From the NCBI GenBank assembly GCA_001029715.1, contig CP011212.1, positions 259,407 to 323,406 on the forward strand: a DNA stretch of 64,000 bases, written 5' to 3'. The stretch's first letter is position 1. Each line of letters starts with the position of its first letter. Below, piece after piece: positions 10,443 to 64,000 of the stretch. The translations under genes were made by a program, and so were the position numbers. The notes under the pieces are model-generated. The model was not told the DNA's origin. It worked only from the letters and a program-made list of their open reading frames with translations, and did not search any database. The DNA comes from a candidate division TM6 bacterium GW2011_GWF2_28_16. GTDB taxonomy: Bacteria; Patescibacteriota; Microgenomatia; UBA1400; PJMF01.

Positions 10443-12164
10443 TTAATGCATCTCCGAGCTTCTTTCTTTCAAGAAGTTTCTCCAAGATTCGATGACGCGA
10501 ATGGAGGTGGAGAATGGCAAATCAATAACGGCGGTGAAGAGGGCAGCAAAGATATTATATTTTTTCCACTGATTAGAAAACCATTGTCCAATTTTGGCTA
10601 AAGGAATGGAAAAGAGTTCGAGTAAAAATTCAGTAAAGCTGACGTGATCTTCGATAGTGATTTCTTTAGATTTTGATTTAATAGCCATGGCCGCGAAGAA
10701 GACCATTGCAACGTTGACGGTGTCGAGATACATGGAGGTCCAAGGTACGCGACCGATCTCAAAAATCCAGAAAATAAAACGCATGGCAGCTAGTCCGCAA
10801 AAAACAGAAATGGCAATAAAAACAAAATTAAGGACTTTATTTTTCTTACGGCGAAAATCGACTTCGTAAACATCTTCACTACTATGTTTATGGATAATTT
10901 TAGAAACCTCTCCTTGAACAATCTTTAAATTGCTGTCTTTTGGAGGGCGAATGACGATCACTAAAATAAACATTACTAAACTAGGAATAAGTAAATCTAC
11001 AAAAAGTGAAAGGATGCTAAATTCTTTACCAGCTAGTTTAGCAACTGGACCTTCAAAGATAATAAAACTGGCAATACCAGCTACAAAAATAGATAAAGTT
11101 GAATAAATAGCGGAACGGAAAAGGCGACTCTTAAGACTTTTCTTACGTTTAAAGTAAGCTTCTTTGATCATTTCCTTAAGTTCTTCTGGATTGGCTAATT
11201 TTTCTTTGACCACATCTGGAGTGTTATTGATTCTATCAAGTACATCACCAATAATGCGATAAGCTGCATCATATTTGCCAGCTAATTTGTAGAAATGTTT
11301 ACCTTCTTCACTATTGAGATCCTCTTCAATCTGTTGGCGAACTTCATGAACTTGTCTCATGACATTTTCTATACTTTCTTCTGTTTCTTCAACCCAGAAA
11401 GGATAGCGGATTTTAATGACATTATAAGAAATGATTGGATCATCAAAATTATAAAGAGTACGCATACTAGCGATATAAATTTGAATGAGGCGATCAAGGT
11501 CGCTCATTTTATCGCTGGGTAAAATGCGATTACGTTCAAAAATAACGTTAGTCATTAGATTAAGCAAGGCGTTTTCTTTAAAAGCTGGGGCTAAAACCTC
11601 TTCAATTTCGCAAGCGGCAACTTCTAGCATCCAGGTATAAAATTCCATTTTGTTTTTAACATGTTTCTTGCTTTGGGAGTTGGGAAGGTTGGAATTATCT
11701 AAAATACGAATGTATTTGGAAAGAATATTTTCGATTTCCTTGATTTGTTTTTTAGCAATTTTGCCATTGTCGAAGTAACCACTACGCATCAGCTCTAAAA
11801 TCATTGGTTCAGCCATTTCAGTGGCGTTCAAATTTGGAAGTATGCTAATTCCATAGAGTTCCGAAACTAAACGACGTTTAAGAATGCGTTCAATGGCTCC
11901 ACGACGCAATAAATTTTCTTCTTTCCAATCAATAACTTTTCTGACCTGTTCATAAACACTGGCAATTTTAGAAGCCAGTTCATCTACCTCAAGAGGGGAA
12001 ATAATTGCTCGATGTTGATACTCCCAGTCCATCTGGTATTGCTTAGTGTATTCTTTAGCGTAAGCAGAAAGCTCTCTAGGCTCAACAATCTTTTTTTCTT
12101 GCTTTACTTCTTCTACTTTTATTTCAGTTTGATTTTCGTTATCTGGCATAAACAATTTCTTCAA
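10443..12164 (-). CDS. hypothetical protein: ~350 aa cytoplasmic N-domain plus C-terminal multi-pass membrane domain
   Basis: 573 aa. The C-terminal third contains several hydrophobic helices. No recognisable catalytic motif. Confidence 0.55.
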   Translation of the reverse strand: MKKLFMPDNENQTEIKVEEVKQEKKIVEPRELSAYAKEYTKQYQMDWEYQHRAIISPLEVDELASKIASVYEQVRKVIDWKEENLLRRGAIERILKRRLVSELYGISILPNLNATEMAEPMILELMRSGYFDNGKIAKKQIKEIENILSKYIRILDNSNLPNSQSKKHVKNKMEFYTWMLEVAACEIEEVLAPAFKENALLNLMTNVIFERNRILPSDKMSDLDRLIQIYIASMRTLYNFDDPIISYNVIKIRYPFWVEETEESIENVMRQVHEVRQQIEEDLNSEEGKHFYKLAGKYDAAYRIIGDVLDRINNTPDVVKEKLANPEELKEMIKEAYFKRKKSLKSRLFRSAIYSTLSIFVAGIASFIIFEGPVAKLAGKEFSILSLFVDLLIPSLVMFILVIVIRPPKDSNLKIVQGEVSKIIHKHSSEDVYEVDFRRKKNKVLNFVFIAISVFCGLAAMRFIFWIFEIGRVPWTSMYLDTVNVAMVFFAAMAIKSKSKEITIEDHVSFTEFLLELFSIPLAKIGQWFSNQWKKYNIFAALFTAVIDLPFSTSIRVIESWRNFLKERSSEMH

Positions 12165-12197: not shown

Positions 12198-13079
12198 ATG
12201 AGCAACATGCCTGATAAATACACCGCCGTTTGGGTTTCCCACACATCTATTAGTGATTTTTTGCAGTGTCCTAGAGCATATTACCTCAAGAATGTTTATA
12301 AAGATCCAAAAACCAACCATAAAGTTCAATTAATGTCGCCACCTCTGGCGCTTGGTCAAGTAGTGCATAGTGTTCTTGAGTCTCTATCAGTTTTACCGAC
12401 CACAGAGCGTTTTAAAGAGTCATTAATTGTTAAATTTGAGCGTAAATGGAAAGAAGTCTCTGGCAAGAGAGGCGGATTTTTTGATGCAGAGACAGAAGAG
12501 CAATATAAAAATCGTGGCAAAGAAATGTTGCTTAAGGTTATGGAAAATCCTGGTCCTTTAACTGGTTTGGCAGTCAAAATTAAAGAGGATTTGCCACATT
12601 ATTGGTTATCTGAAGATGAGGGCATTATTCTTTGCGGCAAGATTGATTGGCTAGAATATCTCAAGGATAGTGACAGCGTCAATATTATTGATTTTAAGAC
12701 TAGTAAAAGCCAAGAAAACGACAGTTCTCTACAGTTACCAATTTATCATCTCTTAGTTCACAATTGCCAGCATCGCAGTGTCAGTAAAGCCAGTTATTGG
12801 TATTTAGGTCTTGATGAAATTGTGGAAAAAACTTTGCCAGATTTGGAAGAAGCTCATGATCAAATTCTCAAAATTGCCAAAGAAATGAAATTAGCTCGTC
12901 AACTGGAGCGTTTCAAATGTCCACATGGCGAAGACGGTTGTTTTGCTTGCAAACCTTTTGAAAAAATTATCCAAGGCGAAGCTGAGTTTGTGGGCGAAAA
13001 TGATTATCGTCAAGACATTTACGTCATGGAGCGATCCAAAAAAGAATTATCTAAAGAAGAAAATAGCGAGTTAATTTAG
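12198..13079 (+). CDS. PD-(D/E)XK nuclease superfamily protein (Cas4/RecB-like) with C-terminal Cys cluster
   Basis: N-terminal SISDFLQCPRAYYLK; IIDFKTSK (D..K motif); C-terminal CPHGEDGCFAC Fe-S-type cluster. Start trimmed to the ATG at 12198 to avoid overlap with the upstream minus-strand gene. Confidence 0.7.
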   Translation: MSNMPDKYTAVWVSHTSISDFLQCPRAYYLKNVYKDPKTNHKVQLMSPPLALGQVVHSVLESLSVLPTTERFKESLIVKFERKWKEVSGKRGGFFDAETEEQYKNRGKEMLLKVMENPGPLTGLAVKIKEDLPHYWLSEDEGIILCGKIDWLEYLKDSDSVNIIDFKTSKSQENDSSLQLPIYHLLVHNCQHRSVSKASYWYLGLDEIVEKTLPDLEEAHDQILKIAKEMKLARQLERFKCPHGEDGCFACKPFEKIIQGEAEFVGENDYRQDIYVMERSKKELSKEENSELI

Positions 13080-52197: not shown

Positions 52198-52272
52198 TCC
52201 TCGATAGCTCAATGGCAGAGCAGGAAGCTGTTAACTTCAAGGTTCTAGGTTCGAGTCCTAGTCGGGGAGCCA
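52198..52272 (+). tRNA. tRNA-Asn (anticodon GUU), CCA encoded
   Basis: TCCTCGA acceptor (like E. coli tRNA-Asn), anticodon loop CTGTTAA, T loop TTCGAGT, GCCA end. Confidence 0.9.
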
Positions 52273-53799
52273 CGTCTCACTTATCCGAACCAAGTCACGG
52301 TCAACAAGTGCTTGGAAACCATCGGTATAAGTAATATCAGCGATTTTTTTGTCTTCAACCCATATCTTCTGGGCAAACCACCTCAAGAACTGCCGTTTTT
52401 CAGGCTTTGTGAAGGCTTCATACAACTCAGGCAGGCGTTTCATAAAGGTAATGATTTTCTCAATTTTGTCTTCATCCAGATTAGCGGAAGGTCGGCTGAG
52501 CTTTTCAATCTTAGCTTCCACTGATTTAAGCTCCTCACGCAGTGGCGAGTACTTCTTCTCTAACCGCTCTTGCGGGATAACCTCAGACAGTAATTGGTCT
52601 TCTATCTTGTCCATTTTCTTTTCAATGGCTTCCTTACGTTTCTTGAGGGATTTGAGCTGCCCAAAAATGTCGGTTCCTTGATTGCTCATTAGTGACCTTA
52701 GCTCCAAACGCAGTTCATCATAAAACTGTTCATCAAATTGGAGTGAGGCAATCCACTGACCTAATTGTTCGTGGACAGCCTCCATATTGGCATAGGGCTG
52801 AGAACAATCTTGTGTATAGTTTTTTGGTCCGAGACATCGGTAGTAACGATTGATGTGTCCTGACTTCTTAATGTGTTCCTCGCCAGACATGAGAGAACCA
52901 CAAGCCTTACAAAAAGTAAGACCTGCTAAAAACCAGTTGTGCTTGCGAGAGCGGTCAGCTCCTTTGTTGTGTTTTTTCATAATTGCCTCTGCTTGTTTAA
53001 TATCACTGACGTTTACAATCTTTGGATGCTGTCCGTTTTTGTAGACTTTTCCGTCATACTTCACCCAACCGCAATAACGAACATCGGTTAGCATACGATG
53101 GATTTGACTGGAGTGTACACGCTTGCCATTTTTTGTGCGAAAACCCTCTTGATACATCATTTCTTCTAACGTTTGGACAGAGTAGTTTCCAGTTTTATAG
53201 CGTTGAAAAATCTCTTTGACAAAAGGCACTCGCTCATCATCCAAGAGCCAAGGAACATCCTTTTTGAAAGAGTTTAGATACCCCAGGACTGCTCCGCCAG
53301 GCTGGATACCTTTTTCAGCCAATGCCACCATAGTGCGTTTGGTTTTTTGACCAGTAATCTCACGCTGTAACTGGTTAGCACCAGCCATGATTAAATCAAC
53401 AAACTTACCCACTGGGTCATCACCAAAATTGGGCTGCTCTGTAGCAATGAGCAAGACATTGTGTTTTTTGAGGAACGCCTTAACAGCCAGGTGGTCTTGA
53501 GCATTACGAGCAAAGCGGTCTGTCTCTTCAAGCAGTACTGCATGAACATCAGGGTCGCTTTCACACCGCTCTAGCATCCGATTAAACTCAGGTCTGCCAG
53601 TCGTTGATTTTCCACTTTTACCGCCGTCCTTATAAACATCAATAATATGCCAGTTTCTTTCCCTGGCAAACTTTGTTAATCGGTCAATTTGGTCTTCAAA
53701 TGAGTGTCCTTCTTTGACCTGACGGTCTGTGCTGACACGAGTATAAAGCAGGCAATTTTTAATCCCGTCAAAGCTATTTTCTCCAATTTGTTGGTACAT
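52258..53799 (-). CDS. large serine recombinase (resolvase/invertase-type integrase)
   Basis: N-terminal catalytic LLYTRVSTDRQ...EDQ...GKSGKS; C-terminal zinc-ribbon and coiled-coil. Confidence 0.9.
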   Translation of the reverse strand: MYQQIGENSFDGIKNCLLYTRVSTDRQVKEGHSFEDQIDRLTKFARERNWHIIDVYKDGGKSGKSTTGRPEFNRMLERCESDPDVHAVLLEETDRFARNAQDHLAVKAFLKKHNVLLIATEQPNFGDDPVGKFVDLIMAGANQLQREITGQKTKRTMVALAEKGIQPGGAVLGYLNSFKKDVPWLLDDERVPFVKEIFQRYKTGNYSVQTLEEMMYQEGFRTKNGKRVHSSQIHRMLTDVRYCGWVKYDGKVYKNGQHPKIVNVSDIKQAEAIMKKHNKGADRSRKHNWFLAGLTFCKACGSLMSGEEHIKKSGHINRYYRCLGPKNYTQDCSQPYANMEAVHEQLGQWIASLQFDEQFYDELRLELRSLMSNQGTDIFGQLKSLKKRKEAIEKKMDKIEDQLLSEVIPQERLEKKYSPLREELKSVEAKIEKLSRPSANLDEDKIEKIITFMKRLPELYEAFTKPEKRQFLRWFAQKIWVEDKKIADITYTDGFQALVDRDLVRISETWLPD

Positions 53800-53932
53800 A
53801 AAGTCCTTTCAGCCACTTAAATGGCCGCCCTGGTGCACTCAACTAGAAATGACTTCTAATTGTCCAAGACGGCCATTAAAAAAAGCCATTTCTATTAGTT
53901 GAGTGCCCTTATATTTTACCATAATATGCCAT

Positions 53933-54241
53933 TTAATTAAAGACATTTTCCTCTGGTACACCAAAGATTTCTCTGATTACTTCAAGAGGGATAAATGGGA
54001 CAATTTCACGCCTTTTGCCCTCGGACTCAATCTTCTGTACTAGGGTGAGGTATTTCTGATATTTTTCTGGTTCAGAGAGGTCAGTGGTACTCGGTGGGTG
54101 CTCTTTAAGCCAGGTTTGAGCATTATCATAAAATTGCAACAGCGTGTCATTATCCATCGCCCGTAATCGGTTTTCGATTGAACTGGCATTTGAGCCCGTG
54201 GCTGTAACGAGTTGGTACTTCATAGCCTTATATTTCTTCAA
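53933..54241 (-). CDS. hypothetical protein (mobile element)
   Basis: 102 aa; overlaps the start of the primase gene. Confidence 0.5.
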   Translation of the reverse strand: MKKYKAMKYQLVTATGSNASSIENRLRAMDNDTLLQFYDNAQTWLKEHPPSTTDLSEPEKYQKYLTLVQKIESEGKRREIVPFIPLEVIREIFGVPEENVFN

Positions 54242-56729
54242 TGAGTGACTCTAGCGTCGGGACATCGGTAGTAGTTTGAGCTAGGCTTAATTGCTTCCCA
54301 GTAATGGGGTGATAAATAGTTGTGCCGTTCAACCAGTCAGAGTTTATTTCGTACAGCTCTTCAACCTGAGGCATAACCACCGTATGCTCAATGGGCTTGT
54401 CAGACAATTTGTAAACGGCTGCTTTTGGTCCTTTGCTTTCTACCACCACTTCGACAAACCCCTTTCGTACCGCTGGGTTAATCCAGTTACGAACTGTGTC
54501 GTCATCCCAGCCAATTTCTTTGGCGAGTAGCCTTACCGTAAACTGTCCATCCTCATTTGTTGCATTGGCTTGGATGAGTTTGGCTTTTTCTAGTAGCTCC
54601 TCAGTTTTGGGATGGATTTCATAAATGGTACGCATCAGGATTTCTTCAAACAAAACCTGAGCGACGTAATAATCAGCCAACGTTGCAACTACCGCACTCC
54701 CACCGTTGATGGTTCTAATCTCTCTTTGACTTTGATGCAGTAGCGTCACATTTTCGATGAGTGACATGAGTTTTGAGTAGTCTCGCCTGACTCTAATGGG
54801 TTTTTTGGGGAAACGGTCGCTTAGTTCTTTAGCAAACGGGATGAGCACAGCGTAGGGTCGGATGATTTTTTGTAAGTTAATGAAAGCTGGGCTTGGCTGC
54901 TTAATAATTTCTGTACCATTGTATTTGGCGTTGGTAACTTCCAAAACCCTAGAAGTCTGTTTCTCAGTTTCATCAGGAAATACTGTGAAATTGCGAGTTT
55001 CATTTTCTGGATGAACGTTAGGGCGAGTAGTAGTGGTAACAAAACCAGTTGGTCCAAAAATCTCTCGCTCCATTGTTTCAATTTCGCCTGTCTCGGGATT
55101 TTTTACCGTTGTTTGGATTTTTAACTTGCCCTCAGATTGGAGTGAGCGGATAGAGTAATCAGCTTTTTGACCACCGTGCATTTCAAAAATCAGCACTACT
55201 TTGTGAGCGAGTGCATCAGCTTCAAGATAGTAAAAACTTTGAGGTGTGGCATCAGTCAGGTCTTTGTAGGCATCAGTGGGAAAAAGTGGCAGTACCTTGG
55301 AGATAACATAGGACTTGCCCGCAGCACTGGCTCCTTTAACAATCACAGAAAGTGGGTTGTCGGTAATCCTTGAAGTTAGAGCCAAGTAGTAGAGCAAGAT
55401 ATTTCGCTCCTCGCCAATTACGCCTAATTTTCTCACCTCGTTCAGCACTTGGTGTAAAAGTAAGGGTGAGTCCAGCAGGATATTTGCCTCAGTGATTTCA
55501 TTTTGATTTAGTGGTTTTTCTGGTAGTGGTGCGGTCTTGGATGGCAAAGTGTTCAGCTCATCCACTGCAAGGCTTAATGCCATGAGACTTTGTGCAACCA
55601 TTACCTGCTCATCCTCGTTAAAATCAGTTAGTTTGGAACTAAAAACACTCCTTCTTCTATCGGAGTGAAGGTTAATATTGTCCTGGTGGATGAGTTGACC
55701 AGTTTTGTATAAAGCAAGAACGACGGTGTCTTTTTTTCTTTGCAATTTGACATGATAACTAAGTCCGTCCTTTTGAAACTCGTAATTTGAACCACCATTA
55801 TTTTTGACCACAAAACCATGTGACGTGTTGGCAACGAGTGGTGCATCAGAGCTCGCAAGCGGAACCGCTAATTTTAGCAACTCAGTAAAATCACTGGCAG
55901 ATTTTTCTAGTTTGGTGAAGTAGTCAGTTAAGTCTACTTTTTTTCCATCGGTTGATGGTAAGGTTACAATGTGGGCTTTACTCCCAAATAGGTTGGCGGT
56001 TCGTTTAGCACCTACCTCGCCAGCCTCATCGGTGTCATAGCAAATATAGATTTTTGCGATGTGCTCAAAGTGCTGCAACCACTCAGGTTTGAACGTGCCC
56101 GCTCCGCCAGTGCTAGAAACGGCTGGGAAGCCATACTGTGTGGCAATCATAGTGTCAAACTCGCCCTCGGTAATGACAACAAACTCTGTCGGTTGACTAA
56201 GAACTCTGAGATTAAAAAGCGAAGCGGTTGAGCCATGTTCGCTCCACAGCTTGCTACCTTCGTCCTTTGCGGGGTCACGACGGTGTTTGATGTTGGTCAG
56301 CGTTCCTTGTTGGTCAAAAATAGGGATGGTGATGCTGCTACCGTCCCATCCAATTTGAAATTGCTTGATGGTGTCCTGAGTAAGTCCTCTTTGAGAGCCA
56401 ATGAGGTACTCCGTTATCCTGATGGGTAACTGCTGGTGGTAAGTAAGAGCACGGGAGTCATCAAGCTTTAATTTGGGCTTGGGAGCAGGTAGATAAAGCT
56501 GTGGTTTACTCTCTAGTGGTATGTATTTATCACCGCTAATTTTCTGCGTTAGCTGACTCCAGCTCCCTTTTTCTCCGCAGTGGTGGCATAAGTAGCAACC
56601 ATCTTCTGCTTTGATGTAGAAGTGTTTTTCCTTGTCGCAAAATGGGCAAATGGTGATGAGTTCGCCGTAGAACTGTCTGTGCTCAATGTTGTGTTGATTT
56701 AAGTAGTCGGCTACATTTTCGAGTAACAT
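54228..56729 (-). CDS. primase-helicase (CHC2 zinc finger + TOPRIM + P-loop NTPase)
   Basis: CPFCDKEKHFY...CHHCGEKGS zinc finger; TOPRIM VVITEGEFDTMIA...DTDEAGE; Walker A VKGASAAGKS. Confidence 0.8.
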   Translation of the reverse strand: MLLENVADYLNQHNIEHRQFYGELITICPFCDKEKHFYIKAEDGCYLCHHCGEKGSWSQLTQKISGDKYIPLESKPQLYLPAPKPKLKLDDSRALTYHQQLPIRITEYLIGSQRGLTQDTIKQFQIGWDGSSITIPIFDQQGTLTNIKHRRDPAKDEGSKLWSEHGSTASLFNLRVLSQPTEFVVITEGEFDTMIATQYGFPAVSSTGGAGTFKPEWLQHFEHIAKIYICYDTDEAGEVGAKRTANLFGSKAHIVTLPSTDGKKVDLTDYFTKLEKSASDFTELLKLAVPLASSDAPLVANTSHGFVVKNNGGSNYEFQKDGLSYHVKLQRKKDTVVLALYKTGQLIHQDNINLHSDRRRSVFSSKLTDFNEDEQVMVAQSLMALSLAVDELNTLPSKTAPLPEKPLNQNEITEANILLDSPLLLHQVLNEVRKLGVIGEERNILLYYLALTSRITDNPLSVIVKGASAAGKSYVISKVLPLFPTDAYKDLTDATPQSFYYLEADALAHKVVLIFEMHGGQKADYSIRSLQSEGKLKIQTTVKNPETGEIETMEREIFGPTGFVTTTTRPNVHPENETRNFTVFPDETEKQTSRVLEVTNAKYNGTEIIKQPSPAFINLQKIIRPYAVLIPFAKELSDRFPKKPIRVRRDYSKLMSLIENVTLLHQSQREIRTINGGSAVVATLADYYVAQVLFEEILMRTIYEIHPKTEELLEKAKLIQANATNEDGQFTVRLLAKEIGWDDDTVRNWINPAVRKGFVEVVVESKGPKAAVYKLSDKPIEHTVVMPQVEELYEINSDWLNGTTIYHPITGKQLSLAQTTTDVPTLESLIEEI

Positions 56730-56741
56730 TTTCTTGTCCTT

Positions 56742-57023
56742 TCATCCAGTTAAATTGTCTGTTAGTAATTGATTGAGCTTTGTTGAGACTGCTTGCTCAA
56801 CAGCTTGGTTGGTTTCTGTGTTTATTGGATAGTAAATCTGTAGCTGCTGCCCATTGGGCAACTTTTTTGTGGGGTAAACACAGCGATATCCCTCGGAGTT
56901 AAGACGGGTATAAACGGCAATGCTTCCTAAGTAGAGTTTGTTGTCCAAAACACACGAAGCGAAAGCGATTAAGCCACTGTCTGCTTTTACTGGGATTATT
57001 TCCACTTCCGAGACTTGAGTCAT
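56742..57023 (-). CDS. SpoVG-like nucleic-acid-binding protein
   Basis: VEIIPVKADSGLIAFASCVLDNKLYLGSIAVY...YPINTETNQAVEQAV aligns with the SpoVG core. Confidence 0.65.
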   Translation of the reverse strand: MTQVSEVEIIPVKADSGLIAFASCVLDNKLYLGSIAVYTRLNSEGYRCVYPTKKLPNGQQLQIYYPINTETNQAVEQAVSTKLNQLLTDNLTG

Positions 57024-57244
57024 GACTGCTCCTGTTCTTCACGTTCAGACTCAAGACGTTCGTAAACACTCGTTAATAGTTGGGCGAGTTGAGCGATGGG
57101 ATTATCACTCTCAAAATTGGTGGTATCAGATGTTGGGAGCTCTACGGTGCTCTCTGAATGAAATGGTGATGTAACTTGCTTCGGTAACATTTGGAGCAAG
57201 TGTAGAAGGTTCCCAAAAAGATTTGAAATACACCAAAAGTTACT

Positions 57245-58030
57245 TTAAGTGTTGGGTAGCCTCATGGTCTTCATTAGCTGCCTAAGCTTTAGCCGTTTTG
57301 GTAGTTTAGCTAAGTGAGCTTTGAAACGATTGCGATAAAGACTGATTACAGTTTCGTCGTGGAAGGTAGTTTTGTTTGGATACTTTTCAAGGAAAAAGTC
57401 GGCGATTTCTCGGTCAGTTTTTCCATCCTTGGTTAACTCAAGGATTTCTTTTTTTATCTCCAGGTCTTTGGTTCGGCTGAGATTGGGTGTTGAAGGTAAA
57501 TCAGATAAGTAACGGTCAATGAGTGGTTTGTTTTTGTTTAGTTCAGCGACGAGCTGCTTGAAAGACATTTTTTCACTCACTGTTATGGTTAGAGAGTTGG
57601 TAGCTTTTGGTTTATGTTTCAGTTGTTTTTGAGCTTTTTTCAGTACATCATCTAGCCCAACCACTCCCGAGTACTCGATTGAAATGGGCATAGTTTCTTC
57701 ATCAATATCAGGTGGTGGTGCAGACTGAAACAAGATAATGCCAACCAGTGTCCCATGCCAGCCAATAGGGAGGTCAAACAGCCAAATTATGTCTTTTACG
57801 GCTTGGTCTATCCATGGCAGTGATTGATTAACGGCATTTGATACATCGTCTGGATTGAGCACTTTTCCTTCTTGGGAAAGTTGAACAGAGTAGCCACCTG
57901 TGGGAACGCCAAACTGTTTTCTGACCGCTGTAATTTCACCAGCTAACTCCTCACTTTCTTCAAGTAACGCTAGTGCTTGGAGTTGTTTTTTTGAGTACTT
58001 TGATTTTTCTAGTAATAGTTTGATTTTCAT
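57245..58030 (-). CDS. hypothetical protein (mobile element)
   Basis: 261 aa, no motif. Confidence 0.5.
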   Translation of the reverse strand: MKIKLLLEKSKYSKKQLQALALLEESEELAGEITAVRKQFGVPTGGYSVQLSQEGKVLNPDDVSNAVNQSLPWIDQAVKDIIWLFDLPIGWHGTLVGIILFQSAPPPDIDEETMPISIEYSGVVGLDDVLKKAQKQLKHKPKATNSLTITVSEKMSFKQLVAELNKNKPLIDRYLSDLPSTPNLSRTKDLEIKKEILELTKDGKTDREIADFFLEKYPNKTTFHDETVISLYRNRFKAHLAKLPKRLKLRQLMKTMRLPNT

Positions 58031-58119
58031 GCCACTTTTTCAGATACCTTATGATGCTATTTTACCAAACTTATCTTGAGGTGGGTAATTTGATTTGTTC
58101 TTACATATGTTTGGTTTTT

Positions 58120-58317
58120 GGGATAAAATACACCCAACGACCTAAACTCATCGTGGTTTCACAGTGAGCATGGTCGAGAAATCGGATAAACGGCAGTAAG
58201 CCCTCCATGGGCTCTACGTTTATCCGTCGTATCCCGAAAGGGGTATGGGTGTCGCAAGATACCAGCCGTGGGGGGCTTTTTGGATATCCAAGGCTCTCTA
58301 CGCAGGAAGACGTAGTT
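58120..58317 (+). promoter_or_regulatory. GC-rich structured leader (riboswitch-like) upstream of a small membrane protein gene
   Basis: Nested hairpins: GGATAAACG...CGTTTATCC encloses AGCCC-TCCAT-GGGCT, followed by a GAAA-tetraloop hairpin TATCCC-GAAA-GGGGTA. Then a G-rich stem plus T-run (GGGGGGCTTTTT), a CTACG-CAGGAAGA-CGTAG hairpin containing the SD sequence, and the ATG at 58318. Confidence 0.3.
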
Positions 58318-58623
58318 ATGAAAGAGCCGATTAAAACAGTTGCCACTATAGTAGGGTTCCTACTTTTACTTGCAATACTCCCATTGCCGTATGGCTATTA
58401 CACATTTCTGAGATTGACCGTTTTTGTGAGCAGTTTATTTTTAGCGTACCAACTGTATGAGAAGAAAAGTCACGGTCTGAGTTTAGTTCTAGCTGGACTG
58501 GCTTTACTTTTTAACCCAATCATCCCTGTTTACCTCTTAAGAGAGACTTGGCTGCCGATAGATTTAGTGAGTGCTGGTTTGCTTTTCTATGTCGGATATT
58601 ATGTCAATAAAGGAGCCAAGTGA
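58318..58623 (+). CDS. small integral membrane protein (3 TM)
   Basis: The ORF runs from MKEPIKT; the upstream in-frame extension is GC-rich leader and is unlikely to be coding. Confidence 0.5.
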   Translation: MKEPIKTVATIVGFLLLLAILPLPYGYYTFLRLTVFVSSLFLAYQLYEKKSHGLSLVLAGLALLFNPIIPVYLLRETWLPIDLVSAGLLFYVGYYVNKGAK

Positions 58624-59387
58624 AGAAACTTTTTGAGGGTCTATTTACCTTGTTTCTCAGCGTCATAGGCATACTTAACTTTTCCTCTGGCATAATTGCT
58701 GCCATTTGGCTTATCGCTGTTGGCGGTTGGCAATTTGTTCTATTTGGTTTCATTTTAGGGATAGCAATGCCGTGGGTTTACTCAATCGCATCTATCCCTT
58801 CAATGCTGGTTGTGCCCTTAATCTTAAAGTTTGCCGAAAAAGGCAACCAACTTTTGATGTCAGTATTTGGGTTCATAGCTTCCTTGTATAACAACTTTTT
58901 GCTGGCACTCTGGGTATCATTTGTTTTTGGGTTGATGATACAGGTTGACTATAACCCAATAGCCATGTGGTTTTGGGGATTTGCCACCGTCATGGGACCG
59001 ATTAGTTACATGGCTAGTAAAGAAGACAGGGGCTCACTGGGTACAGTATTAGGGGCATTTTTCTGTCAGGTGGGATACATACTATTAACGGTTTCATACT
59101 ACTTTTTTGGTAGTGAGACATTGGGTTATAGCCTGCTTTGGTTGTCATTGATTGCATTTTCAGGGCTCAATATCTACCTCGGGTTTGCTGAGGGACTGTT
59201 GAGAAAAAGTGGAGCAGGTTCCACAAGCGTCCAGCCATTGGAAGAAGAAAATATCGAAGAGGCTGACATCGTGACACCAATGGAAGAACTGCAAGATACG
59301 GGTAAAAAATATTGCTCTAATTGTGGAGAACAAATTAACAAGTCAAGCAATTTTTGCACAAGTTGTGGAACTGCACTGAAAGGATAA
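58620..59387 (+). CDS. polytopic membrane protein with C-terminal zinc-ribbon
   Basis: 6 TM; acidic linker; C-terminal CSNCGEQIx8CTSCGTAL (Cx2C...Cx2C). Confidence 0.6.
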   Translation: MKKLFEGLFTLFLSVIGILNFSSGIIAAIWLIAVGGWQFVLFGFILGIAMPWVYSIASIPSMLVVPLILKFAEKGNQLLMSVFGFIASLYNNFLLALWVSFVFGLMIQVDYNPIAMWFWGFATVMGPISYMASKEDRGSLGTVLGAFFCQVGYILLTVSYYFFGSETLGYSLLWLSLIAFSGLNIYLGFAEGLLRKSGAGSTSVQPLEEENIEEADIVTPMEELQDTGKKYCSNCGEQINKSSNFCTSCGTALKG

Positions 59388-59390
59388 TGT

Positions 59391-59690
59391 ATGTTTTGTG
59401 GTAATTGTGGAGCCAAGATTGATGAAAAAACTAGGTTTTGTCCCGAGTGTGGGACAGAAGTTAAAAATGTTGGCAGGGATGCTAACGGCAAGAAAGACCA
59501 AGATATTGCTAGCGAACACGGTATTAAAAACCTTGATGAAAGACTGCAAAGACTTGAAAAATTAGGTGTAAATCACCCCAAGCTTATTAATCGTGCTTTT
59601 ACAGTGTGGGGTTATTACATACTCGCTCAAATAATAGTGGCGGGAGTGGTACTACTCCTTGCCTTAGTTTTTGGGCTTTTCTCTCAATAA
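59391..59690 (+). CDS. zinc-ribbon protein with C-terminal TM anchor
   Basis: N-terminal FCGNCGAKIx8FCPECGTEV; C-terminal hydrophobic helix. Confidence 0.6.
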   Translation: MFCGNCGAKIDEKTRFCPECGTEVKNVGRDANGKKDQDIASEHGIKNLDERLQRLEKLGVNHPKLINRAFTVWGYYILAQIIVAGVVLLLALVFGLFSQ

Positions 59691-59699
59691 AGGGTAAAT

Positions 59700-60833
59700 A
59701 TGTTCTGTACTCACTGTGGCTCTCACCTACGACAAAATGCTAAGTTCTGCGAAAAATGCGGCTCCACTGTGTCGAAGCCAAAAGCCAACAGTCAAAAAGT
59801 TGACAAGTCTCAGTCGAAAATAAAATGGCTAGTCGGTTTGGTAGTACTTGCAGTTGTTGGAGTTTCGTTTTCTCGTTTTTTCCTAGGCGGTAACTCTGTG
59901 ACTGGTTACTCACAAGATGAAGCAGGATTTAAGAAAGCTATTGACAGACAATACCAATTGCTTGAGTCTGGCACGGAAGCAGATGTACAACAGATTTACC
60001 AAGATTTTCTCGACCCAAAAGCTAAAGTCATGTCAGAAGAAGAGTACTTAAAGGGGTTCAAAGAGTATTGGGGTGACAAATATCAAAAAGTTATCATGCA
60101 TAGCTATAAAGCTGATGGAGCTAATGCTTACGCTGACAGAACTATCCGTGTGTGTACTGATGAGAACTGTCAAAACGTTGAGTCAATTAGCCGTGCCTTT
60201 AAGAAGTATTACTACGAAAATGGGCGATGGCTGATGAAGGGTGAAGACTTCTATTGCCCTAGAACTACCAACTATGAAATGGAGCCAGAGTTTTCTCGAG
60301 CTCTAAGTCTGATTGAGCAGCGGGCGACAGAAGCAGACACAGACTCTGCGGAGACATTTAAGACTTACCTAGAAGTAATCCACTGTCTGCAAATCCGATA
60401 TGCCCCTGCCGATGCTGACATGAACCAGGCAGAGGGTGTGTTTCACTTTATCCCTGGTCAAAGTGCCGAAACACTATCAATCGTCGTTTCACCTCGATAT
60501 AAGTCAAAAGATGACATCCTAACAGCCACGCTCATTATGCATGAGCTTACCCATGCCGTGAACTACGTTTCTGGTCTTTACGATGGAAAACATACCGATT
60601 GTTACCTAGACGAAGCACAAGCCTTTAGTAATCAAAATTGGTTTTTAACTGTACTTAATAATGAAGAAAAGCAGTCACTACTGGCTCGGATGAGAGTCGG
60701 TGGCTCTCCCGAACTGGTAGGTATTGCTAACGTACTGCAAACCGTTCCTCGCATGAAAGGAGCTACTTATGAGGAACAAGCTCTGAACTTTGTTAAAGCT
60801 AATCCGTTTTATCAAAAACAGTGCGGTACATAA
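59700..60833 (+). CDS. zinc-ribbon / TM / extracytoplasmic zincin-like (HExxH) domain protein
   Basis: N-terminal FCTHCGSHLx8FCEKCGSTV; one TM; IMHELTHAVNY HExxH with downstream LDEAQAF Glu. Confidence 0.6.
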   Translation: MFCTHCGSHLRQNAKFCEKCGSTVSKPKANSQKVDKSQSKIKWLVGLVVLAVVGVSFSRFFLGGNSVTGYSQDEAGFKKAIDRQYQLLESGTEADVQQIYQDFLDPKAKVMSEEEYLKGFKEYWGDKYQKVIMHSYKADGANAYADRTIRVCTDENCQNVESISRAFKKYYYENGRWLMKGEDFYCPRTTNYEMEPEFSRALSLIEQRATEADTDSAETFKTYLEVIHCLQIRYAPADADMNQAEGVFHFIPGQSAETLSIVVSPRYKSKDDILTATLIMHELTHAVNYVSGLYDGKHTDCYLDEAQAFSNQNWFLTVLNNEEKQSLLARMRVGGSPELVGIANVLQTVPRMKGATYEEQALNFVKANPFYQKQCGT

Positions 60834-61288
60834 AAAAAACTTTGGGAGTGAGTTGTTCCGATGTCCCGATGTGGTCAGAACCACAAGTTCATTAACAAGA
60901 ATCCTTTTTCTTTAGGTGGCTCCTGCCACAGGGGTAGTTATATAGTGTCCGCTACCTCTGAACATCGGTACTAGCTCTGCTGTATACCAGATGTGATAAA
61001 TAGGCTTAATGACTGTTTGGGGTTATTGAAAAGGAGCATTGTATTTTTAGGATACTACCTCTGGTGGTAAATTGCCCTACTCGAGGAAGGCGGAGTATCG
61101 TTAAACACTAAGTTTGTGGTAGATGGGTGTGTAATATTTTACACACATTGCTGTCAAAACTTTGCCAACTAATCCCAGGCAATATTATTGTTTTTAGCCT
61201 GGTTGGAAGTTTGATGTTGAACGAGTAAACGAAAGTATCTCATTTGCTTGATATGAGATAAAATATTGTAAGAAAAAGTAAAGAAAAT

Positions 61289-62851
61289 ATGGGATTTAGA
61301 TTTCGTAAATCATTTAAGATAGCTCCAGGCGTTCGGCTCAATATGAGTAAAAGTGGCTTGGGTATGAGTGCGGGTGTTCGTGGTGCTCGGGTTGGCTTTA
61401 ATAGCCGTGGGTCTTATACCAGCGTTGGTATCCCTGGAACTGGTATCCACTCAACTACTTATAGCAAAACAGGCAGAAAAGCTCGAAGCTCAGGTGGAAG
61501 AACAGCAAATCCTAGTCAGTCATCAGGTGGCGGTAAGCTACTACTTTGGTTGATTGCTATCGTCGTGGGTATTGCTCTTCCTCCATTGGGCGTAGTCATG
61601 GTGATTGGGGCAGCGATTTATTACTATCAACGGAACAAATCTCCAAAATATCAAGCAGAGCAGCGGATTAAAAAGGCTACGACGTTTTTCCAAGAACAGA
61701 AATATGCTGAGGCTGAGCCACTACTATTAGAGGCAGCCAATATTCATCCTGAAAACACGGAAACTGATTTTTTATTGGGTGGTGTTTACCATAATCAGGG
61801 TAAGTACAAAGAAGCTGCACCCTACCTAGAACGAGCTCATCAACAAGACCCGACGCATGAAGGAACTCTTGTATCACTTGCAAACTGTTATTTTAGCTTG
61901 GGTGAGTTCGACAAGGTTATACCCCTTATGCAAAACTTCCCAGGTGGTTGGGAAAATAATTTGAAAGCTTTACAACTTCTGGGCTTGAGTTTCTCCAATA
62001 AAGAGCAGCATGACTTGGCAATAGAAGTTTTCAAAAAGGCTTCGTTGACCAAAAGAAACCTTGATGATGGTTTGTTAGAGCTTCATTACAACCTGGGAAT
62101 TGTTTATGATGCTGCGGGGCAAAAAGCCAACGCACAAAAGCATTTCAAAAAAGTGTACGCCTACAACATGAACTACAAGGATGTGCTGAGTAAGATTGAT
62201 GGGGATGTGCCTAAAATCACCGATGGTGAACCGAAGCAAAACCAAGGGAAAGTTAAGGGACAAATTGGTTACTACGGGTTAGAGGACTGGTGGCTATCTG
62301 AGTTTAGTGAAGAAGAGAGGAGCCATATTGAGGAAGTTTTCCAACCTATGGGGTCTGAACCTGGTAGTAAGTCGCTAACTGAGGGTGAGTTGAGTTACTC
62401 ATCGCAGAACGCTGCTGGTTTACTTCATGCTCTCGCTGGCTGGTTCAATAAACCAGGCGACCGAGAAATTGCCAAGAAAATTATCGCTAAAGCAACTGAA
62501 CTAGCTCAAGATGGTAATGATGTTCTTGACCTTCACTTTTCGCTACAGCAAAAGATGGAGATTTATTACCGAGAACGTGAGGCTGACCCAAAAGCCATGG
62601 ATGAGGCGATTAAGGCTTGTGAGGATCAAATCAGGATAGCACCGCAGGCAGCACGACAATTTCTCAAAGAGTATCCAGGGCAACCAGTGCCTGGTCATGC
62701 AGGGTACACTCAACTAGCTATCATCCTCAAAAAACAAGATAAGCACCAAGAAGTAATCGTACTTTGTGAGAAGGCAAAAGAGCAAGGTTGGGCTGGTGAT
62801 TGGGATAAGCGGATTGCTGATGCCCAGAAGAAACAGGAGGGACAAGTATGA
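61289..62851 (+). CDS. DUF4236-type N-terminal domain / TM / TPR-repeat protein
   Basis: MGFRFRKSFKIAPGVRLNMSKSGLGMSAGVRGARVGFNSRG matches the DUF4236 pattern. One TM follows, then TPR-like repeats (HPENTETDFLLGGVYHNQGKYKEAAPYLERAHQQDP...). Confidence 0.6.
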   Translation: MGFRFRKSFKIAPGVRLNMSKSGLGMSAGVRGARVGFNSRGSYTSVGIPGTGIHSTTYSKTGRKARSSGGRTANPSQSSGGGKLLLWLIAIVVGIALPPLGVVMVIGAAIYYYQRNKSPKYQAEQRIKKATTFFQEQKYAEAEPLLLEAANIHPENTETDFLLGGVYHNQGKYKEAAPYLERAHQQDPTHEGTLVSLANCYFSLGEFDKVIPLMQNFPGGWENNLKALQLLGLSFSNKEQHDLAIEVFKKASLTKRNLDDGLLELHYNLGIVYDAAGQKANAQKHFKKVYAYNMNYKDVLSKIDGDVPKITDGEPKQNQGKVKGQIGYYGLEDWWLSEFSEEERSHIEEVFQPMGSEPGSKSLTEGELSYSSQNAAGLLHALAGWFNKPGDREIAKKIIAKATELAQDGNDVLDLHFSLQQKMEIYYREREADPKAMDEAIKACEDQIRIAPQAARQFLKEYPGQPVPGHAGYTQLAIILKKQDKHQEVIVLCEKAKEQGWAGDWDKRIADAQKKQEGQV

Positions 62852-63396
62852 GGTCAAAACAACTTATTACGTTAGTTTTATTGATTGCAGTTGTAGCTGT
62901 GATTGCTTACTTTGCTTATAGTTCAAAACAACGCAATCAGACTACGCCAACATCGGCAACACAGATGGAACAGCAGAACGCCGACTGGCAGGATGAAACA
63001 GTAAACGAAATTGGTTTAACGCTTCAACATCCTAAAGACCTGGTGTTCCGCAAGGAAATTGCCGACGATAACGGCAGGATTAGAACAGTGGGGTTTTTCC
63101 TAACAAAAGGCTCCGAAAATAGCCCTGAGTATCAAATGTACGGATTGTACCAGCAGTTTAAGGATGGAAGCCAACAAGACTTGGAACTTGCTAAGAAAGA
63201 GATGGACTCAACCACCATAAAGGAAGCAAGTATCACTGGCTACTCTGGTATTGAGGGTTTAATCATTGGTCCAAAAACCAGGTTCATTACTACTGTGATT
63301 AAAGATGGAAAACTTTTTTCGGTATCAACAATCCCACCTACAGAAGAAAATAAAGAACTGACCGAACAGATAATAGCAACCTTTGATTTTGAATAA
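62848..63396 (+). CDS. hypothetical secreted/anchored protein
   Basis: N-terminal hydrophobic helix; overlaps the previous stop (translationally coupled). Confidence 0.5.
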   Translation: MRSKQLITLVLLIAVVAVIAYFAYSSKQRNQTTPTSATQMEQQNADWQDETVNEIGLTLQHPKDLVFRKEIADDNGRIRTVGFFLTKGSENSPEYQMYGLYQQFKDGSQQDLELAKKEMDSTTIKEASITGYSGIEGLIIGPKTRFITTVIKDGKLFSVSTIPPTEENKELTEQIIATFDFE

Positions 63397-63398
63397 TT

Positions 63399-63683
63399 AT
63401 GCCCGTAATTTCATACTTATTGACTGCTTTTTTTATTGGAGGTGGGATTTATTGTATTTTCCAATATTGGAAGGTAGAGCATATTGAAAGGGAAATTAAT
63501 GTGCTTGAAACTGAATGGGATGGAGTGCCCAAGAAGTCTATGAACCCTTATGTCAATAACGACACCTTGTTGAAAATCATCGCCAAAAATAGACAGCCAA
63601 TTGAACGGAAAATATATTTGTTAAAACAGAAGAGACAATTCGTGTTGGACAAAATACCACTAATTGGTTGGTTCAAAAAGTAA
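63399..63683 (+). CDS. hypothetical small membrane protein
   Basis: One N-terminal TM; 94 aa. Confidence 0.45.
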   Translation: MPVISYLLTAFFIGGGIYCIFQYWKVEHIEREINVLETEWDGVPKKSMNPYVNNDTLLKIIAKNRQPIERKIYLLKQKRQFVLDKIPLIGWFKK

Positions 63684-63716
63684 TACCTCAGCTACATGGC
63701 TTGCTGAAATGTTCAC

Positions 63717-63962
63717 TTATAGTTCACACTGATGTTGGTAGCTTGGGTTATCCGATATGAGTTGAAACAACTTACTACGAAGGTTTTTTTGCGAGCATTC
63801 ATCATCTGTAAATAATGGGCACGTCCCATCACGATTGATATCAATCATAGTTTTGAGCATAGCCACCTGGGGATGTTTATCGTCGTTCTCTTCATTCATT
63901 TTAAGCACAACAGAACTAATCTCTTCGTTACTTAGTTTGGTGTAAAAATCAATCTGTGACAC
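63717..63962 (-). CDS. hypothetical protein
   Basis: 81 aa acidic protein; weak support. Confidence 0.35.
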   Translation of the reverse strand: MSQIDFYTKLSNEEISSVVLKMNEENDDKHPQVAMLKTMIDINRDGTCPLFTDDECSQKNLRSKLFQLISDNPSYQHQCEL

Positions 63963-64000
63963 GAATGCTTCAACCTCTTTGTCTCTACAAGATAGATTGT

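Follow-up and report, generated by a model that had tools for sequence, protein, structure and literature searches.

We analysed a 64,000-nucleotide stretch of DNA (hereafter the window) that forms part of LBVQ01000001.1, a record from Rifle groundwater (record coordinate = window + 254069). In its right part, a gene for a large serine recombinase (LSR, integrase) overlaps the 3' end of a tRNA-Asn gene and marks the left border of what is very probably an integrative element. The host chromosome is that of Candidatus Pacebacteria GW2011_GWF2_38_9. Proteins identical to the LSR and to the primase of the element (window 52258-53799 and 54228-56729; KKQ10291.1 and KKQ10293.1, or KKQ88654.1 / KKQ88657.1) also stand in public records under 'candidate division TM6 bacterium GW2011_GWF2_28_16', and this double deposit is probably a binning error. 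The loci compared with the window carry L-numbers (L010, L018, L030 and so on). Locus L010 carries the sequence on to window-equivalent 73683, 'window-equivalent' being the window numbering continued past 64000. About 35 public contigs cover the locus, and all are collinear with the window, that is, in the integrated form.

The tRNA-Asn(GTT) gene lies on the plus strand at 52198..52272 and has its CCA encoded (ARAGORN; Rfam tRNA, 62.2 bits). The LSR gene lies on the minus strand at 52258..53799 and encodes 513 aa in the integrated state. Read from 53799 to 52258, this open reading frame (ORF) has the C-terminus DLVRISETWLPD (...ISETWLPD), and direct reading places its final codons at 52273-75 (T), 52270-72 (W), 52267-69 (L), 52264-66 (P), 52261-63 (D) and 52258-60 (TAG), an overlap of 15 nt with tRNA-Asn. 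Codon by codon, this bears out the initial annotation, which had the recombinase end (TWLPD plus stop) inside the last 15 nt of the tRNA. In antisense, the Trp codon corresponds to the encoded CCA (GAGCCA giving TGG CTC) and the Leu codon to the discriminator and the last acceptor bases, while Pro, Asp and the TAG stop are read off the tRNA acceptor and T-stem. The overlap is not chance, because the same antisense overlap from the same Trp codon recurs in at least ten independent loci, whose LSRs are 38-85% identical to the present one.

The protein matches the Pfam families Resolvase (PF00239, E 1.7e-27, residues 17-164), Recombinase (PF07508, E 4.9e-12) and Zn_ribbon_recom (PF13408, E 2.3e-8), and is therefore a large serine recombinase. 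Its N-terminus contains the motif YTRVSTDRQ, with R21, S23 and Q27 invariant in a 27-sequence alignment; a resolvase-type catalytic domain with serine nucleophile is present, as are the recombinase and zinc-ribbon domains. Comparison with PHROGs returned 'integrase' (E 4.6e-90), and comparison with the PDB returned the N-terminal domain of TP901-1 integrase (E 3e-17) and the C-terminal domain of A118/LI integrase (4KIS). The enzyme has the full C-terminal domains of large serine integrases, not the helix-turn-helix (HTH) of small resolvases, and is presumably active at the present day. About 33 protein clusters, 38-85% identical to it, form its tight clade; identity drops to about 27% in the next relatives, and characterised enzymes reach at most about 27% identity to the present LSR. 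The clade is absent from the 2.9 million contigs of IMG/VR.

We compared junctions at about 30 loci with a related LSR; species-representative genomes, when scanned, gave 20 loci. Read in LSR orientation, TTGGTTCGGATAAG-N6-TGGCTC is common to all loci and divergence follows directly. At the protein level, the C-termini of the clade share ...DLVRI-x3-WL and then fall into two classes; in one of them the tail reads P(D/R/G)(L/V/E)DSN(Q/H)(E/R)P..., where DSN is GAT TCG AAC, the T-loop in antisense. Antisense tRNA-Asn(GTT) follows TGGCTC at 11 loci, and four of those tRNAs contain group I introns. Six loci are identical over the final 45 nt of the LSR gene and show five different sequences after CTC, the contig of the sixth stopping one base later. 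In one cluster of LSRs at least 90% identical, the WL codons are followed by eight or more different tails. With one shared LSR end and differing continuations, the junction must therefore lie at, or a few bases from, GAGCC at window 52267-52271. Similarity among loci breaks after the Trp-Leu codons, and the att junction proposed at the 3' end of tRNA-Asn is upheld.

From this comparison of loci, attL (52237..52301) consists of a B arm (52237-52266) formed by T-arm and acceptor of the tRNA, in which GGTTCG stands 13 nt from the core; the core itself, GAGCC (52267-52271); and a P' arm (52272-52301) made of the last LSR codons (...LVRISETW). Seven nucleotides, GGGGAGC, are common to attL (at 52264-52270) and attR. 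The crossover falls within these seven, only about 5-6 nt from the tRNA 3' end, at a dinucleotide whose exact position is a prediction. About 9-10 of the 15 overlapping nucleotides (codons P, D and stop) belong to the host and about 5-6 (W and L) to the element; tRNA nucleotides up to about 52266 are host, and the terminal (G)AGCCA is supplied by the element. At the far end no tRNA fragment is duplicated, merely the 7-nt core. The reconstitution of the tRNA that had been read as the signature of attL is therefore minimal, as expected for a serine integrase: the att junction stands, and all that the element adds is that terminal (G)AGCCA.

The arms of the sites show a regular geometry. In the 11 tRNA-side arms, the T-loop GGTTCG ends 13 nt before GAGCC (tRNA sense). 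In the non-tRNA arms, a GGTTCG-like sequence stands 18 nt before GAGCC, and these arms resemble the T-arm with five extra bases; in the LSR-side arm (codons for LVRIS), CGAACC occurs at the same 18-19 nt after the centre. In serine integrases, the motif of the zinc-ribbon domain (ZD) is 5 bp nearer the crossover in attB than in attP half-sites (PMC3783163). The 13- versus 18-nt spacing matches this 5-bp rule, and the tRNA junctions are therefore attL (B + P') and the non-tRNA junctions of the P/P' type. In each of the six reconstructed attP sites, symmetry is greatest about the first G of GAGCC, where 12-15 of 27 positions pair as complements, against some 7 expected by chance (a quarter of the positions, by estimate). 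For the present element, the right P arm joined to the P' arm gives CGGATAA-N13-G-N13-TTATCCG. Imperfect inverted repeats, a minimal core and the 5-bp ZD shift are all found. The central parts of the predicted sites are CGGTCGGATAAAATCCCACAGGGGGAGCCACGTCTCACTTATCCGAACC (attP) and GGTTCGAGTCCTAGTCGGGGAGCATTCCAATTTTAGC (attB), the corresponding 60-mers ACGGTCGGATAAAATCCCACAGGGGGAGCCACGTCTCACTTATCCGAACCAAG and GGTTCGAGTCCTAGTCGGGGAGCATTCCAATTTTAGCTTATACATC. At two further loci, L049 and L050 (JGI 3300020213 / 3300020057, near L050 1749), an LSR of the same cluster (at least 90% identity) with an identical P' arm adjoins GC-rich (0.49-0.57) non-tRNA DNA, whose arm CCCGTTCGGCAGGCTCAGGGC-GAGCC has attB-type spacing; this may be a secondary attB in a different host.

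The right boundary had been assumed to lie outside the window, and the proposed downstream search for attR located it 1.44 kb past the window end. In window-equivalent positions, attR consists of a P arm (65412-65441), the core GAGCA (65442-65446 = L010 12044-12048) and a B' arm (65447-65476), and reads GAAATACGGTCGGATAAAATCCCACAGGGG-GAGCA-TTCCAATTTTAGC... We built a position weight matrix (PWM) for the P arm from the other loci only and scanned both strands of 73.7 kb, with 200 shuffles as the null. attR scored 22.2, the highest value in the 73.7 kb; the shuffle maxima had a mean of 11.7 and a highest value of 21.1. Its P arm closely resembles that of L030. Five other elements (L030, L034, L036, L038, L039) have attR-type sites with P-type arms upstream of the LSR, with 6-14 nt around GAGCC identical to their own attL. 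The element thus very likely extends from window 52267 to window-equivalent 65441 (13,175 bp). A first attR candidate (L010 about 12444, CAAGGGGAGCCTTT, 8-nt match to attL) was rejected, since the PWM did not rank it near the top and the spacing of its arm was 2-3 nt off; the corrected attB 28-mer is GTCCTAGTCGGGGAGCATTCCAATTTTA.

Just inside the right end, window-equivalent 65112-65441 (L010 11714-12043) holds 327 nt of non-coding, GC-rich sequence with several hairpin-like segments, in which no Rfam family was matched. Only its final 72 nt would be coding, and only in the excised form; the stretch could hold an origin or a promoter. Contig ends cluster at 52216/52243/52245, 57763-57833, 65347 and 65510. 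As evidence of graph branches these are suggestive, but not consistent with a single k-mer logic, and were not used.

Base composition changes over the same interval. GC content is 0.355 in the left host flank, 0.422 in the element and 0.339 in the right host flank; starting at the tRNA it stands at 0.42-0.43, and the GC-rich stretch ends at about 65.4-66.9 kb, beyond which GC is 0.32-0.34. Measured against the host sequence of the left flank (window 1-52197), the tetranucleotide correlation lies at 0.78-0.81 within the element and at 0.93-0.98 elsewhere. The changes in GC and tetranucleotides cover exactly 52.3-65.4 kb. This agrees with the initial annotation, in which the sequence up to 64000 had looked GC-richer than the 0-52 kb region. 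A uniform profile and a resolvase without att junction had been named there as findings that would refute it; neither was found.

The flanks were compared with a relative, L052, whose alpha/beta hydrolase is 78% identical. There, the conserved order is sigma-70, Exo_endo_phos, tRNA-Asn and the hydrolase, with 4.7 kb of unrelated genes before the last of these. At the nucleotide level the two sequences are similar up to window 52270 and no further, and nothing of 52.3-65.3 kb is present. The tRNA-Asn of L052 ends in GAGCA, which is the end predicted for the native attB of the present genome; integration therefore replaced a tRNA end without encoded CCA by one with CCA. As in a genomic island, the region is bordered by attL and attR, has a distinct composition and is absent at the syntenic site of a relative.

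The integrated element with a serine recombinase at a tRNA, as first described from the sequence, is thus supported by attL and attR, composition, synteny and recurrence across loci. The anatomy, the position of the junction, the geometry of the arms and the flank synteny in a relative are directly observed, with recurrence over many loci. We consider it highly probable that the LSR joined attP and attB of a 13,175-bp integrative element at the 3' end of tRNA-Asn. With its primase/P-loop protein, the element probably replicates independently.

Mechanistically, the LSR would have joined the attP of the element to an attB centred on the tRNA-Asn(GTT) 3' end by a 2-bp staggered crossover within GGGGAGC, that is, the end of the acceptor stem plus the discriminator base, with the symmetry centre at the first G of GAGCC (window 52267). 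attP straddles the last codons of the LSR gene itself: its P' arm is the coding sequence for ...DLVRISETWL and its P arm the opposite end of the element. Both attP arms carry the T-loop-like GGTTCG/CGGATAA about 18 nt from the core, the real tRNA T-loop motif being at 13 nt. Integration keeps the tRNA intact, now with encoded CCA, and would swap a 24-residue integrase tail for Pro-Asp-stop read from the antisense strand of the tRNA. The excised LSR is predicted to have 535 aa, with 24 further codons and the tail PLWDFIRPYFPDTSQNLQYQPAYA (PLWDFIRPYF...). This tail agrees with the motif of the family, and that motif is simply the P-arm DNA motif in translation (ATT CGA ACC = I R T). A regular expression for the attP-type tail peptide gave no match in the window and its extension, because the element's own tail has Pro where the others have Thr. 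A '554-aa LSR' in L045 was merely another gene call on identical DNA and not a different form. The existence of an excised circle is predicted, as is movement of the element between cells.

Several points speak against this interpretation. Among the approximately 35 public contigs that cover the locus, look-ups by exact matches to the LSR, the 94-aa protein and the Exo_endo_phos flank recovered neither an empty attB, nor an alternative occupant, nor a circular attP junction; the direct signs of mobility, a conspecific empty site or a circular junction, are thus missing from this set. The corrected attP 28-mer is absent from the viral contigs of IMG/VR. Metagenome contigs gave 0 matches to the 41-nt left flank or to the attB derived from the wrong attR, the correct attB not having been searched there. 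No recombination directionality factor (RDF) was identified, the B' arm has no clear motif, and the core of attL and attR is short (7 nt). Finally, only a 5.8-kb core is common to the element and its closest relative, L018. The attP derived from the wrong attR candidate likewise had 0 matches in viral contigs.

This conserved core (52267-58030) consists of the LSR, a 96-aa ORF, the primase/P-loop protein, SpoVG, a 56-aa ORF and a 261-aa protein, with 71-85% protein identity to L018 and all genes on the minus strand. The small ORF after the LSR (53933..54241, 96-102 aa) is 75% identical to its L018 counterpart and has no family match in Pfam or PHROG; it is a possible candidate for a directionality factor. 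At 54228..56729, an 833-aa replication protein comprises a weak CHC2, a Toprim and a Walker-A P-loop region and a C-terminal HTH. It had been annotated as a CHC2/TOPRIM/P-loop primase-helicase, and this stands in part. Toprim_2 was matched (Pfam PF13155, E 1.4e-9), whereas the CHC2 finger stays below threshold (18.2 vs 24.9 bits), the 'P-loop' is a Walker A motif (GASAAGKS) recognised by eye, and the protein gave no match to a helicase family. PHROG matches were to DNA primase and primase/helicase, together with a match to the T7 gp4 primase domain, and precomputed hits add the plasmid-protein domain PF27228. The annotation of the following gene as SpoVG holds: the SpoVG-like protein (56742..57023, 93 aa) matches PF04026 with 36.8 bits at a cut-off of 29.6 and is 79% identical to its L018 counterpart. 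The core ends with a small ORF (57020..57199, 56-59 aa), called in several assemblies and with a weak L018 homologue, and with the 261-aa protein (57245..58030), which is 74% identical to a 265-aa L018 gene and matches HTH_5 below the cut-off.

A cargo block follows on the plus strand (58207..63683) and encodes a DUF6804 membrane protein, three zinc-ribbon proteins, a DUF4236-TPR protein and two small membrane-like ORFs (Pfam). Two of the zinc-ribbon proteins (255 and 99 aa) look like membrane proteins on reading, and the third (377 aa) has an HExxH motif. None of the cargo has a PADLOC match or an assigned PHROG function. On the minus strand, the 3' part of a 268-aa gene (63717..64000) runs off the window; beyond it come a 194-aa gene, the 327 nt of non-coding sequence and attR. 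Pfam and PHROGs revealed no capsid, portal, terminase, tail or lysis genes among the ORFs of 52.3-65.4 kb, which separates the element from a prophage. Nor did Pfam detect relaxase, coupling protein or type IV secretion domains in any element ORF, the genes by which an integrative and conjugative or an integrative mobilizable element would be recognised. The element is best described as integrative and plasmid-like or satellite-like, functionally nearest to tycheposons and elements similar to phage-inducible chromosomal islands (PICI-like).

The gene content bears on a first alternative, a phage satellite or defective prophage that moves in the capsids of a helper phage rather than as a plasmid-like circle. 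An integrase and a primase-type module within about 13 kb beside a tRNA are the layout of PICI-like satellites and PICI-like tycheposons, and the DUF4236 proteins match several PHROG families without assigned function. However, capsid, terminase, portal, tail and packaging-redirecting genes were not found with Pfam and PHROGs, and the LSR clade does not occur in the 2.9 million IMG/VR contigs. We regard a satellite as improbable. Slightly less probable still is that only the 5.8-kb core (52267 to about 58100) is mobile, 58.1-65.4 kb being an older island or a decayed neighbour and 65442 the neighbour's end. This reading would fit the conservation with L018, which is limited to the core, the head-to-tail arrays that related loci do form, the breaks of several assemblies at 57763-57833 and a weak P-arm-like PWM score of 12.5 at 58432. 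But that score lies at the mean of the null, there is no break in GC or tetranucleotide composition over 52.3-65.4 kb, and near 58 kb neither an LSR remnant nor a P'/P junction was seen. Moreover, the P arm at 65412-65441 is palindromic with the P' arm of the present LSR itself about a shared centre. That no integration took place, the tRNA and a resolvase or invertase of a resident region being merely adjacent or the tRNA belonging to the element, would suit the failure to recover an empty site or excised form, but is very improbable given that one and the same LSR 3' end has many different partners, each beginning exactly behind the WL codons, that tRNA-Asn sequences with or without introns follow the host and not the LSR, that L052 flank synteny breaks at the tRNA end, and that the C-terminal domains are those of a full large serine integrase, unlike a small-resolvase HTH.

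The assembly breaks at window 57763-57833, inside the gene for the 261-aa protein, occur in at least four samples (JGI 3300025154, SRR3309375, SRR6482096, ERZ28564033). A repeat search found no repeat or att-like site at 57.7 kb that would explain them; they may reflect strain variation or an effect of coverage.

Returning to the 13,175-bp integrative element, related loci show how such elements are arranged. P/P' junctions also occur on chromosome-sized contigs and at compositional boundaries. This could be taken as a contradiction of the model, and was resolved by recognising them as junctions between neighbouring elements of arrays. The arrays are head-to-tail and anchored at tRNA-Asn. The L035/L039 contig holds three units, all complete, of which one has an LSR with just 24% identity to the present one; L030 holds two units and ends at an intron-containing tRNA-Asn; in L018, a second near-identical P arm lies 3.65 kb further on. 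As the loci are arrays, a P arm beside an LSR belongs to the neighbouring element. Genes beside such P arms are often defence genes (GmrSD, type I restriction-modification, DUF87/NurA/DruA). The arrays could have arisen by recombination of attP with an occupied site or by homologous recombination between related elements. To our knowledge, canonical serine integrases do not recombine attP with occupied attL or attR, and head-to-tail arrays with P/P' junctions bear on whether this clade keeps strictly to the unidirectional attP x attB rule, under which a directionality factor is needed for excision.

Between the near-identical P arms of L018 (11550-15183) lies the 3.65-kb module, which encodes a LexA/S24-like peptidase, a Y-family polymerase and SRAP; the sequence adjoining the second P arm resembles the B' arm of the present genome. 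At L030 16672-18360 and L035 18334-19962, LSRs only about 24% identical to the present one likewise run through this att core with their 3' ends. One of them overlaps tRNA-Asn, its tail being VLRG-stop, and in the other, SNWL is followed by a P-arm tail. The site, and the layout in which an ORF spans it, are therefore common to distant LSR lineages.

Serine integrases are textbook inserters into protein-coding genes, and tRNA genes are the territory of tyrosine integrases. Phage-type LSRs (Listeria A118/LI, TP901-1, Bxb1, phiC31) have the same set of resolvase-type catalytic, recombinase and zinc-ribbon domains as the present enzyme, and the same imperfect-palindrome att sites with a very short core and an outer motif 5 bp further out in attP (PMC3783163). 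Unlike theirs, the present target is the 3' end of a tRNA gene rather than a protein-coding gene, attP overlaps the last codons of the integrase, the C-terminus of which differs between the integrated and the excised form, the att arms imitate the tRNA T-loop, and the element is not a phage. Tycheposons of Prochlorococcus combine an integrase, a primase/helicase module and variable cargo beside a tRNA gene, and form tandem arrays and islands; they overwhelmingly use tyrosine recombinases with direct repeats of partial tRNAs, a minority using large serine recombinases (bioRxiv 10.1101/2020.12.28.424599). The present element resembles tycheposons and PICI-like elements in its replication module, cargo, tRNA site and the arrays among its relatives, but differs from nearly all tycheposons in its integrase class, and from tycheposons in repeating only 7 nt, in its distinct LSR clade and in its host from the candidate phyla radiation (CPR). 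We describe it as working like a tycheposon and do not file it as a member.

Two further comparisons concern insertion and attP placement. The CcrAB/CcrC recombinases of the staphylococcal cassette chromosome SCCmec are LSRs whose insertion point is the very 3' end of a conserved housekeeping gene, which stays active, and elements can stack head-to-tail at that site; their target is the protein gene rlmH (orfX), there are usually two recombinase subunits, and the recombinase genes are internal and do not span attP. The present element is thus similar in 3'-end insertion without inactivation and in the stacking seen among its relatives, and different in target, subunits and attP placement. In elements of the SSV1 type, attP lies inside an element gene and int is split on integration into a tRNA gene, while in the integration-dependent immunity of mycobacteriophages the repressor loses a C-terminal tag on integration; both use tyrosine recombinases. 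As in these systems, attP lies within a gene and integration changes the gene product; in contrast to them, the present enzyme is a serine integrase, and only its last 2 (integrated) or 24 (excised) residues change.

A serine-integrase element as a kind is known already. New here is a tRNA-specific one, with attP embedded in the last codons of the integrase and arms that mimic the tRNA T-arm; none of the open-access papers searched was found to describe a lineage of serine integrases that is devoted to a tRNA gene. More tentatively, and with considerable doubt, we propose an undescribed LSR lineage in CPR/Patescibacteria that is specific for the tRNA-Asn 3' end, with attP arms that copy the T-arm (+5 bp), one of them coding for the conserved C-terminus. 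Its integrase would be state-dependent (513/535 aa), and recombination of attP with occupied attL/attR would stack elements head-to-tail into defence-gene islands. If so, the state-dependent tail could tune stability or directionality without a classical RDF. The approximately 30 loci with attL, attR and attP-type junctions are a natural data set that independently reproduces the attP/attB half-site rule, and the case illustrates how an enzyme can come to target a tRNA in evolution, by taking a copy of the T-arm into its att site and its coding sequence. It also provides precise borders of a mobile element in a CPR bacterium, a group with poorly known mobile elements and gene flow, as well as compact, sequence-defined attP/attB pairs as candidates for new recombinase tools. 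The head-to-tail arrays further hint at a way for variable islands to grow beside tRNA-Asn in these streamlined genomes.

Between core and cargo of the present element, a LOOT RNA (RF03000) was found on the plus strand at 58139..58263 (86.3 bits vs a gathering score of 46.4, E 1e-15), where it overlaps the DUF6804 ORF at its nominal start. Six related loci gave no such match, and we came across no usable description of LOOT in the literature; through this match the motif is assigned to a mobile element in a named CPR bacterium.

Other observations concern the tRNA-Asn genes of related loci. In L034, the LSR abuts a 44-nt 3' fragment of tRNA-Asn (11459-11502), with a complete tRNA-Asn about 770 nt further on (12224-12298), which suggests that an earlier event duplicated the tRNA 3' end. 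Rfam revealed group I introns (RF00028, 56-100 bits) in the anticodon loop of tRNA-Asn(GTT) in four Patescibacteria genomes (L023 11577-11836, L025 11576-11769, L028 11570-11781, L030 18395-18685), and ARAGORN, when run to allow for introns, located them in L023, L025 and L027, the last called as tRNA-Thr. Standard ARAGORN misses the intron-bearing tRNA-Asn genes; LSR elements still use the tRNA 3' ends there.

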